From a virus (Duplodnaviria > Heunggongvirae > Uroviricota > Caudoviricetes), in IMG/VR virus record IMGVR_UViG_2698536428_000020: a stretch of 39,678 nucleotides of DNA; one strand, written 5' to 3'. Shown here piece after piece: positions 30,001-33,000 of the stretch. Numbering within the stretch: the first letter of the stretch is position 1; the number at the start of each line of letters is the position of its first letter. A program made the position numbers.

Positions 30001-33000
30001 CCAACACTCCATGATGGTGATGTGGTGGGGGTAAACACGCAAGATACGAGCATCAGGGATGGTAAAACATATGCAATTTGCCAAGCTGATTTGTTAAGGG
30101 TAAAAACGCTAATAGCCACACCAACATCGGTAATTATCAGATCGATAAACCGCGAAGAGTATCCTGATGAAGTAATGAACAGAGAAGAATTCTACAAAAA
30201 CGTAAAAATCATAGGACGAGTGTTCTGGTCATCACATAGCTGGTAATCAGACTCCAACTGAACTTTTGCTATAAGAACACTCACGAAGAACGGCCTTTTA
30301 TTGTGCTCAATACCACCGATGGTAAACCATTCGCCAAGTAGCCAATTCATAAAATGCCATTTCTAAATCCCCCGGCTCCAGTGCCGGGTTTTATTTACTT
30401 AATTACACAGTCGCATATCCTGAAGTAACACATCTATAGCTAACTTCACAGCGAGATCATCCAATTCATCATGGTGAAGCACTCGGATCATTCCCGCAAT
30501 AGCATCTGCTGAAATAGCTTCCCCAGTAGCAATAACCTCAAGCAACGACACCCCTAGAATTTCGACTACCCGCTGGTGCAACACACCAAATTCCCCTTCG
30601 ATTAACATGCAATCACCCATAACAATCAGCCTTTCCCCCTTGAAAATATCACGCGGATACCACAAAAAATAAAATATTTTTGTTATCAGCCATTTATAAC
30701 GTTTTCCATAAAATGATAAATATAGTTATTGCACAATCAGATAACTTAGGTTATCTTCAATTCAACAGCAGGACGCTGGAAGCCAAACGGAACAGATTGG
30801 CAGGCTCTTTAACATTGATGGACTCTCAACCTAACCGTTGAGACCAAAATCTAAGTGGTTTTGGGGATGACGCGAATTTCAGTTGCAAGGCCGCGATCGA
30901 GAAGAAAAACACCTCGACGCGTCATACACCAAAGCCACTTAAAGGAGACCATCATGGTAACCATAATCTGGAAAGAATCCAAAGGTACGGCAAAAAGCCG
31001 CTATAAAGCTCGCAGGGAAGAACTTATTGCAGAGCGGCGCAGTAGTGAAAGACTGACGCGGAAGATTGCGCTAAAGATCTCTGGTTGCGTCAGAGCAGAC
31101 AAAGCAGCATCACTCGGCAGCCTTCGCAACAAGAAGGCAGAAGAAGTCGAGCGCAAAAACAGAAGTACTTATTACAAGGATTCAAACCCATTAGGAAACA
31201 AAATACATGCAGTTCAAAAAATAAAATTGTACAGTAAACCACCGTATGGACTTATTGAGTATGCTTATGGTGAAAAAGACTATTTATGTTAATCCTAATC
31301 GCGGACAAAACAGAAAAGTATCTGATAGAAGCCTTACATCTCGAGACAGAAGGAGGATAGCGAGATGGGAAAAGAGAATAGCATATGCATTAGAAAACGG
31401 TATAACACCTGGATTTAATGCTATAGATGACGGTCCGGAATATAAGATTAATGAAGACCCAATGGACAAAGTTGACAAAGCATTAGCAACACCATTTCCT
31501 CGAGATGTTGAAAAAATTAAAGATGAAAAATATGAGGATATAATGCACAGAGTTGTTAACCACGCTCACCAACGAAATCCAAATAAAAAATGGTCATAAC
31601 CCACTTCGGTAGATTTTATTGTTTGGACTAACAAAATTTACTACCGCAAGCCACGCAGTGAAACGGGTGTGACTTGTGTTGGTCGCCAGAAAATAAAATT
31701 AGGCAGCAAACCACTTATTTGAAGTGAGATATGGAAGAAGAATTTGAAGAGTTCGAAGAGCATCCACAGGATGTGATGGAACAATACCAGGACTATCCGG
31801 ATGACTACGACTATTGATACAAATCAATGGTGTGGGCAATACGAACTACGGCCATGATTGCCAGAGAACTTAGCAAACAGAAAAACAAGGCTGCCTGATG
31901 GTGGCCTTTATTTTTGGCATAAACAAATCAGTAAAAAAAAGCGAGGTGATTGATGACCACGCCTTCAGTTTTGCCGCAAAAATTATGGCGTCCGCTTGCA
32001 GAGATTAAAAACTTCGTTGAAAAAATGCCTGACGGCGTTCGCCTTACGGAAGTTACTAAAAAAGTTAAGACATTTGCCGAACTGTCAGGAAAGGAGAGAA
32101 ACCAGCTCATAGATTTTATCGATAAACGGGAAAGCATCATTGTATTTAAGGTCAGAAAAGAAGGTTCTGGTAACGGAGTAACCTTTTTCCGCCACAAAAA
32201 ATATGGATATCCCAAGCGGGAAGGAAACGTCACAATCATTAAGGACCTTCAATCAAAATTATGTACCAGATGCGGGCAGACAAAATCAGTCGATGATTTT
32301 TATTCAGATGCCAGCAAACGTGACGGGAGAGCCATTTATTGCAAGAAGTGCGAATCTGCGATGAAACGCTCACGCAGAGAATGCAACAAATTAATTCTGC
32401 AACAACAGGAACCTGAAATGAATAACCTAAAAGCAGTTTCACCTTCACCAGAAATACTCAGAAAGCAGGCGGAAGAATTGCTGAAAGCCGCCGAAATTGC
32501 GGAGAAAAAACGCCAGGAAGATGATGTATTCAACAAAAAACTTGCGCCCTTAAAACTTGAAATTCTTCAGGCCGCCGGAAAAATGCAGCTTAAACTGGAC
32601 GAATTCATCGACTGTATGGATGAAATGAATAAAGCAGTTCAGAAGCTTAAAGAGCTGACCGCCTGATATTAATAAATTGCAACTACCGGAGTTAACTATG
32701 AACGAAACAGAACTGAAGCACATTATCGCCCTGCTTCTGGAAGATGCCAGACAGGTTTATCGACTTAGCCCAAACTCCGCAACGCAGGAACGCATCCGGA
32801 TGGCAGAAAAAGCTCTGAAACAGGAGAGTGAAAATAACATATCCGAAGTTAGCGCGAATGGTGAAAATGAAGCAATAGAAATAAACAGCAATATCAGCAA
32901 CGGCGTAATAGCTTCATCCCACAAGACAATTCTCATGGGCGCACGACTTCTGGAGGTGATTACGAGTGAGCTTGAAAAGAACGGTATCAAGCCCACCCCT

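Follow-up and report, generated by a model that had tools for sequence, protein, structure and literature searches.

What kind of gene lies between the repressor gene cI and the left operator (OL) of a Shiga toxin phage, on the strand opposite to cI? The question arises in a 39,678-nucleotide stretch of viral DNA (IMG/VR record IMGVR_UViG_2698536428_000020; hereafter the window), which is a lambdoid, Shiga toxin 1a (Stx1a)-converting prophage. A prediction made from the sequence alone (the original prediction) had placed a small antisense gene here, and had suggested that it could be operator-regulated and act in exclusion or in the lysis-lysogeny decision. We found that this gene belongs to the PHROG 3946 family, which holds a fixed slot in lambda- and P22-like prophages, beside OL and the promoter pL, and is transcribed away from pL toward the 3' end of the cI operon. 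In our reading, it is neither a Rex analogue nor a classically operator-occluded gene. By analogy with small host proteins, we tentatively propose, with somewhat less than even confidence, that it could be a self-transcribed accessory gene for a protein-binding "connector" acting on a conserved host target.

A small gene family with a fixed position in the immunity region

Using a profile of nine members (threshold E<=0.01), we identified at least 620 relatives of the small gene product, in Salmonella, Klebsiella, Citrobacter, Enterobacter, Serratia, Yokenella and others. The family is restricted to Enterobacterales, nearly all relatives are 65-70 amino acids (aa) in length, and the protein is kept with an intact frame down to 35% identity. 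Only the profile makes the family visible, as an exhaustive single-sequence HMMER search returned 7 matches; a scan of genome contigs found only 4 loci. Carriers include Stx1a- and Stx2a-converting phages and many Salmonella, Klebsiella and Serratia prophages.

We compared gene order in 87 loci, comprising IMG/VR loci, two Logan contigs, three phage records and the window. Where N and cI were recognisable (about 70 of the 87), the order was N (-), the family gene (+), a gap of 0 to about 2 kb, cI (-), cro (+) and cII (+), and the same order was found in Serratia genomes. It is kept across immunity types like those of lambda, HK022, epsilon34, P22/L and others, and both with lambda-N-like and with P22-gp24-like antiterminators. 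The original prediction had made the standing of the ORF (open reading frame) depend on its conservation among related prophages, and in their immunity regions it is indeed conserved, at the same position. The family gene keeps a constant distance from the N side. Its distance from cI varies with what has been inserted between the two: genes of more than 20 unrelated families, oriented like cI, are found there, and some loci, the window among them, have none. Thus, within this known hot spot for insertions, the family gene is part of the OL/pL side.

The sole other genomic context was found in one divergent subclade. There, at the end of a myovirus-type prophage where the tail-fibre genes lie, the gene is directly downstream of a signal-peptide-bearing nuclease of PLD type or NucA type, with two DinI genes alongside. 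Nuclease-linked loci of this kind are located as follows:

L078, 3359-4195
L086, 3145-4195
L095, 3371-4207

Coding sequence and selection

The antisense, acidic ORF of the original prediction is present in the window on the minus strand, at 88 aa from a TTG or 73 aa from an ATG, with an isoelectric point (pI) of 4.4, and it converges with cI at a terminator as had been described. The features concerned are:

30399-30665, minus strand: small gene, longest ORF (88 aa from TTG)
30399-30608, minus strand: most likely coding sequence (CDS), 69 aa (MLIEGEFGVLHQRVVEILGVSLLEV...DVLLQDMRLCN), an acidic, predicted helical protein of PHROG 3946
30609-30665, minus strand: in-frame upstream extension, also leader
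30371-30388: hairpin terminator common to cI and the small gene
29539-30246, plus strand: cI-type repressor, convergent neighbour of the small gene (Peptidase_S24 and HTH_3, phrog_4)

There are three in-frame starts, TTG at 30665 (88 aa), ATG at 30620 (73 aa) and ATG at 30608 (69 aa), and the 69-aa form (30399-30608) is most likely the CDS. The phrog_3946 match (E 5.6e-30) places residues 21-85 of the 88-aa ORF on profile positions 2-67 of 67, the profile beginning at the third possible start methionine, and homologues begin at the aligned position. PGAP likewise calls a 69-aa CDS of 210 nt (WP_024166114.1), and the 34 nt between the putative -10 element described below and this start fall within the family-typical range of 27-34 nt. 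GenBank OP797663 annotates the 73-aa form, whose ATG at 30620 may serve as an alternative start. The TTG start of the 88-aa form would lie upstream of the transcript, given a putative +1 near 30636. The window protein contains 12 acidic residues (D+E) versus 4 basic residues (K+R).

The ORF lacks annotation in reference phage records (PA28, Stx1a phages, epsilon34, ST104 and SPN9CC), as would be expected of a chance ORF without function. We give almost no credence to this explanation, which is contradicted by the family size, the kept synteny, the conserved promoter-like module and terminator and the ratio of nonsynonymous to synonymous substitution (dN/dS), the median of which is 0.10 (550 pairs from 36 distinct coding sequences of 204 nt). 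Between the window allele and relatives of 66% identity, the proportions of nonsynonymous (pN) and synonymous (pS) differences are 0.23-0.25 and 0.73-0.85, respectively. Judged by these patterns of conservation, the chance explanation is excluded and the small gene is a genuine protein-coding gene under purifying selection.

The window allele is rare in E. coli, where it was found in 50 of 5426 complete genomes. Within the E. coli clade we noted a G-run polymorphism inside the small gene (about 30541-30552, minus strand; GGGGTG versus GGGGGGG, giving ILGVS versus ILGGA), and the public variants P0001 and P0004-P0008 are frameshifted or restarted exactly at this run. Either a hot spot of slippage or an error of assembly could account for this.

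A conserved promoter-like module and a shared terminator

Upstream of the small gene we identified a putative promoter composed of two elements:

30643-30651, minus strand: putative extended -10 element TGaTATTTT, with a +1 inferred near 30636
30665-30674, minus strand: conserved AT box TTTTATTTTT (family consensus ATTTATTTTT) over the -35 region

When upstream regions of the family are aligned at the start codon, the elements follow one order: the AT box, a spacing of 12-13 nt, TGn with a -10-like hexamer, and an A-rich leader with GAGG. The AT box, which is matched with 0-1 mismatch in most subclades at 12-13 nt upstream of the TG, forms the upstream edge of the conserved gene module, and the promoter-like module begins where the immunity-specific operators end. 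Of 56 distinct upstream regions, 47 contain the pattern TGnNAnnnT at 23-39 nt, and mostly at 27-34 nt, before the start codon; among shuffled sequences the proportion is 16%. Its bases vary by subclade (TGCGATACT, TGCCATACT and TGATATGCT), and base differences between subclades at a constant element are the pattern expected of a constrained promoter. The small gene of the window has a poor -35 region, as is usual for extended -10 promoters. A consensus promoter scan gave nothing on the minus strand at the right place, extended -10 elements being outside the model of the scan, and neither CII-type (TTGC-N6-TTGC) nor LexA-type boxes were seen by eye in the promoter region.

At the other end of the gene, a terminator scan identified the hairpin CCCGGC-N6-GCCGGG at 30371-30388, with folding energies of -13.4 and -14.2 kcal/mol. 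Its U-tail is strong and canonical on the cI strand and weak on the small-gene strand, where the sequence past the hairpin (GGAUUUAGAAAU) forms a poor U-tract. A CCCGGC...GCCGGG hairpin is also present 3' of the stop codon in many homologous loci.

In six loci (L004, L035, L048, L058, L062 and L072) we additionally observed a conserved non-coding insert (ggatct..ggtggcgggcaaatggatgaaatagc..ttatcaatgagttacgttggcgggcgaatgg), about 70-100 nt past the stop codon of the family gene and between that codon and the terminator, which is possibly a 3' untranslated region element. The insert is absent from the window, with a faint resemblance around 30290-30350. No conserved second ORF was found downstream of the family gene, the insert included.

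Operators and repressor control

Matches to ATAACNNNNGTTAT (pattern ATAAC-N4-GTTAT) with at most one mismatch occur five times in the 39.7 kb, only at the right operator (OR) and OL. The two operator-like sites that the original prediction had quoted upstream of the small gene are both among the five, at OL, and this confinement indicates that they are real and non-random. The sites and the adjacent promoter are:

29465-29527: OR, three operators (at 29465, 29490 and 29514)
30716-30754: OL, two operators
30716-30729: OL2-like operator ATAAATATAGTTAT
30741-30754: OL1-like operator ATAACTTAGGTTAT, overlapping the -10 of the putative pL
30729-30757, plus strand: putative pL (TTGCAC, 17-nt spacer, TATCTT), read from the sequence

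The putative pL, which is divergent from the small gene, scores under the threshold of the promoter scan. The strong sites OL1 and OL2 lie 108-146 nt upstream of the 69-aa start; measured from the putative +1, they are about 80-118 bp away. To stand in for operators in about 18 immunity types, we took pL-side intergenic segments that resemble the OR region of the same locus. Such OR-like segments were found at about -118 to -104 (OL1) and -98 to -76 (OL2), and in many immunity types a third lies between -70 and -40, in a position that varies by about 25 bp. The segments end at -40 or further upstream, with the exception of a few short AT-rich or promoter-proximal matches; operator-like sequence almost never extends as far as the -10, and none of the operator-like segments covers it. 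In the window, the stretch from -70 to -40 contains weak operator candidates only (7/10 matches).

Thus, the suggestion that the small gene is operator-regulated was not borne out in that form, as its promoter-like module starts past the operators and does not show the operator overlap of -35 and -10 that is found in pL and pR under CI. Given that the strong operators are off the -10 and that the spacing is variable, direct or classical occlusion by the repressor appears unlikely, and modulation from an OL3-like site beside the -35 region appears possible.

One IMG/VR locus (L053) carries a Salmonella-type allele adjoining operators of the ATAAC-N4-GTTAT type of the window. One immunity module has thus been combined with two alleles that are about 45% identical, and the junction between allele and immunity module in L053 falls exactly at the AT box.

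Predicted fold and proposed function

AlphaFold2 (AF2) was applied to the homologue P0016, a typical member of the family, with 104 aligned sequences. One of the models obtained is confident (pLDDT 83.9, pTM 0.69), and its helices span residues 4-9, 13-28, 35-45 and 53-63. The predicted structure has the YmgB-type helical fold, and YmgB is the best structural match of the family, at 12% identity. YmgB/AriR of E. coli K-12 (PDB 2OXL, PF10798) and its paralogues YcgZ and YmgA are "two-component connector" proteins. In profile-profile alignment with hhalign, the conserved (I/V)LGxAV helix was aligned with K-12 AriR, YmgA, YcgZ and YmgC (E 7e-4, probability 27%), and a collinear, full-length alignment of 58 columns was obtained with YdfK/YnaE (PF27475; probability 69.6%, E 4.2e-5), with an AIDVL motif in both. 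From these models and alignments we infer that the product is a small, acidic protein of the cytoplasm, folded as a helical bundle like YmgB/AriR; YdfK/YnaE of cryptic prophages are probably its distant relatives.

Other searches gave no functional assignment. Pfam, NCBIfam and PDB sequence searches found no functional match, PHROG 3946 itself being an unknown-function family, and PADLOC returned 0 families for nine members at E<=1. None of the 120 relatives listed has a precomputed PF27475 match. Foldseek found nothing significant against PDB with the low-confidence window model, or against BFVD with the confident homologue model. A "DUF2767" UniRef label on one relative was set aside as unverified, since no such Pfam match and no paper was found.

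The predicted fold points to a host-protein-binding connector rather than to a component of the phage switch. YmgB is a small cytosolic protein that activates Rcs from the cytoplasm (PMC11709261) and binds SpoT, raising ppGpp (guanosine tetraphosphate) (PMC10704370). In the proposed mechanism, sigma-70 RNA polymerase would transcribe the small gene on its own, without N antitermination and most likely in the lysogen too. The product would act in the manner of YmgB, as a connector binding a conserved host regulatory protein; by analogy, SpoT and the Rcs phosphorelay, on its cytoplasmic side, are candidates. Such a connector would alter host physiology or induction conditions, rather than bind DNA or act in Rex-type exclusion. 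A conserved host target would fit both the high conservation of the protein while cI and N vary and its Enterobacterales-only spread, and its acidity makes DNA binding unlikely.

Several points weigh against this proposal. The promoter of the small gene is putative, being read from sequence, and in several immunity types an OL3-like site abuts its -35 region. Only one of the five AF2 models of P0016 is confident, the other four being weaker, and the model of the window protein itself is poor (pLDDT 62). The profile-profile scores are modest, and suggest rather than prove a common superfamily with AriR and YdfK/YnaE; the YmgB family (PF10798) was not matched by the window protein and 12 relatives even at E<=10, while AriR scores 90 bits against it. 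YmgB and YdfK lack the marked acidity of the PHROG 3946 family, so the target of the family may differ. Finally, some alleles in the E. coli clade are frameshifted or truncated, suggesting that the small gene is dispensable there.

Alternative explanations

Among the alternatives, most weight goes to a repressor-modulated role in the switch, less to a nuclease inhibitor or DNA mimic, and least to transcript interference on cI. In the first, the small gene would be an operator-controlled early gene, whose divergent promoter is shut off or activated by repressor at OL and whose product takes part in the lysis-lysogeny decision. We consider this unlikely, and equally so its corollary that the protein is made only upon infection or induction, or only in lysogens. 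The family gene always adjoins OL, and the third OR-like segment of many immunity types is positioned just upstream of, or touching, the -35 region and AT box. In the window and L053, moreover, a weak stretch rich in half-sites (GATAACAAAA...) has its centre near -43, in a geometry that, read from sequence, resembles that of OR2 relative to pRM. However, the strong operators are too distant to cover the -10, the candidate third site of the window has 3/10 mismatches, and the spacing between promoter and nearest operator, the latter at about -67 in the lambda-immunity locus L059, varies by about 25 bp between immunity types, which argues against a fixed contact geometry. The conservation of the family gene beside variable cI and N genes also points to a host rather than a phage target. 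In a second, improbable alternative, the acidic protein would serve as a decoy, shielding DNA or the cell that produces the protein from nucleases or restriction. This would account for the pI of 4.1-4.5 across the family, with 12-16 acidic residues in about 67 aa, and for four non-canonical loci (L078, L086, L095 and L096) in which the gene lies directly downstream of the signal-peptide-bearing nuclease, overlapping it in L086, the nucleases being from two families (PLDc_2 and a DRGH NucA-like enzyme). In contrast, this association is limited to a single subclade, about 80 canonical loci are without a nuclease partner, and the best structural match is YmgB and no known DNA mimic or immunity protein. 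L078, L095 and L096, but not L086, also keep the convergent neighbour of about 345 aa of the canonical loci, so these three loci may represent a transposed cassette.

An effect of the transcript rather than the protein, in which minus-strand transcription that converges on cI, or on the inserted genes, and continues past the weak terminator damps the cI operon by interference or antisense pairing, would be in keeping with the poor minus-strand U-tract and with the convergent geometry of all canonical loci. It is far less probable than either of the above, given the strong purifying selection on the amino-acid sequence, the intact frame at 35% identity and the absence of any Rfam family at the locus (29000-32500). 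Thus, with a dN/dS of 0.10, a transcript effect on cI would be at most secondary. Returning to the proposed connector, we can also conceive of an additional, so far overlooked element in many lambdoid immunity regions: a pRM-like arrangement at OL, in which repressor at an OL3-like site tunes a promoter that is divergent from pL and drives the YmgB-like protein. This would couple prophage state to host signalling in envelope stress (Rcs) or in the stringent response (SpoT), and so set capsule-based superinfection resistance and/or the induction threshold, and hence Shiga toxin release, although we regard such a combination as a long shot.

Prophage setting of the small gene

The remaining features of the window that frame the small gene are:

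17275-18231, minus strand: stx1A, Shiga toxin 1 subunit A (MKIIIFRVLTFFFVIFSVNVVAKEFTLDF...)
28792-29088, minus strand: cII
29204-29431, minus strand: cro
30804-30843, plus strand: nutL, with boxA GCTCTTTAAC and boxB hairpin TCTCAAC-CTAACC-GTTGAGA, read from the sequence
30954-31292, plus strand: N-like antiterminator, first gene of the pL operon and divergent neighbour of the small gene (phrog_271, E 1.1e-30)
31246-31599, plus strand: Nun-like ORF (phrog_5632, "Nun-like transcription termination factor", E 2.2e-69)

The stx1A gene identifies the window as Stx1a-converting. The 650 bp surrounding the small gene are 99% identical to the Stx2a phage PA28, phage 06-3462 and a series of Stx1a-converting phages, in most of whose records the small gene is unannotated; nutL and boxA features are annotated in phage records matching the window. 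The Nun-like ORF overlaps the 3' end of the N-like gene, and the phage would thus carry both N and a Nun-like protein. An Rfam scan of 29000-32500 (E<=1) matched no RNA family.

We noted two further peculiarities of the window. About 125 nt separate the cI stop codon from the terminator (30247-30370), without a convincing gene; the sole ORF in this gap (52 aa, 30192-30350, minus strand) overlaps the end of cI, and the gap may be what is left of an inserted gene that was deleted. A direct repeat, about 60-85 nt long, occurs three times (27803-27888, 28569-28631 and 28660-28721) with cores 87-100% identical, one within a 358-aa replication-gene ORF (27462-28538) and two just upstream, between that ORF and cII. 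The copies yield recurring "QQPEAD...PGPS" peptides in several frames, and could be iteron-like or a duplication.

Novelty and significance

The family is already in databases as "hypothetical protein" and as PHROG 3946. We found no study of it in the literature searched, and none of the fixed slot divergent from pL, the conserved promoter-like module and the YmgB-like predicted fold was found described in searchable literature; the ORF goes unmentioned in the papers on the epsilon34 genome and on the O26 Stx1a phages. Few regulatory regions in biology have been studied as much as the interval from cI to OL and pL of lambdoid phages, yet the gene has been left unannotated in epsilon34, ST104, SPN9CC and PA28. 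Rcs and ppGpp pathways affect phage adsorption and the development of lambdoid and Stx phages. If the product is a YmgB-like connector, the family would provide a prophage route to act on host Rcs or ppGpp signalling; if it is without phenotype, it would be one more small accessory gene.

Comparison with known systems

YmgB/AriR is encoded in the BluR-controlled ycgZ-ymgABC operon, whereas the small gene is prophage-borne and lies beside pL, and its product is much more acidic. YdfK and YnaE are prophage accessory proteins of 77 aa from the cryptic prophages Qin and Rac, are cold-shock-induced, and are made from these resident prophages after cold exposure and in long-term stationary phase (PMC5594050, PMC7406224). 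They resemble the family in that one PHROG 3946 subclade also lies after tail-fibre genes, and differ from it in being neither acidic nor beside pL.

The rexA-rexB genes of lambda, stk of 933W and bstA of BTP1, which forms a cI-bstA operon (PMC7067206), likewise lie between cI and OL, an interval in which accessory genes are known to cluster, and genes of the rexA-rexB type lie between the family gene and cI in homologous loci. These genes are co-oriented with cI and expressed from pRM, whereas the small gene is on the opposite strand and the OL side, with a putative promoter of its own, and has no sequence similarity to them. The contrast in orientation with rexA-rexB that the original prediction had drawn stands, and the lack of a PADLOC, Pfam or PHROG functional match indicates that the small gene is not a Rex homologue. 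An RNA of BTP1, STnc6030, is not relevant here, as it is antisense to the tailspike gene and BTP1 is not among the phages that hold the family.

The morons of lambdoid phages, known from HK97 and HK022, are autonomous units of promoter, gene and terminator. The small gene is similar to these in having a promoter-like element upstream and a hairpin terminator immediately downstream, albeit with a weak U-tail on its own strand, and in the presence of the family in only a subset of syntenic phages and once in another genomic place. What is not typical of a moron is the unusual constancy of place and direction that the family gene shows in immunity modules that are themselves very different.

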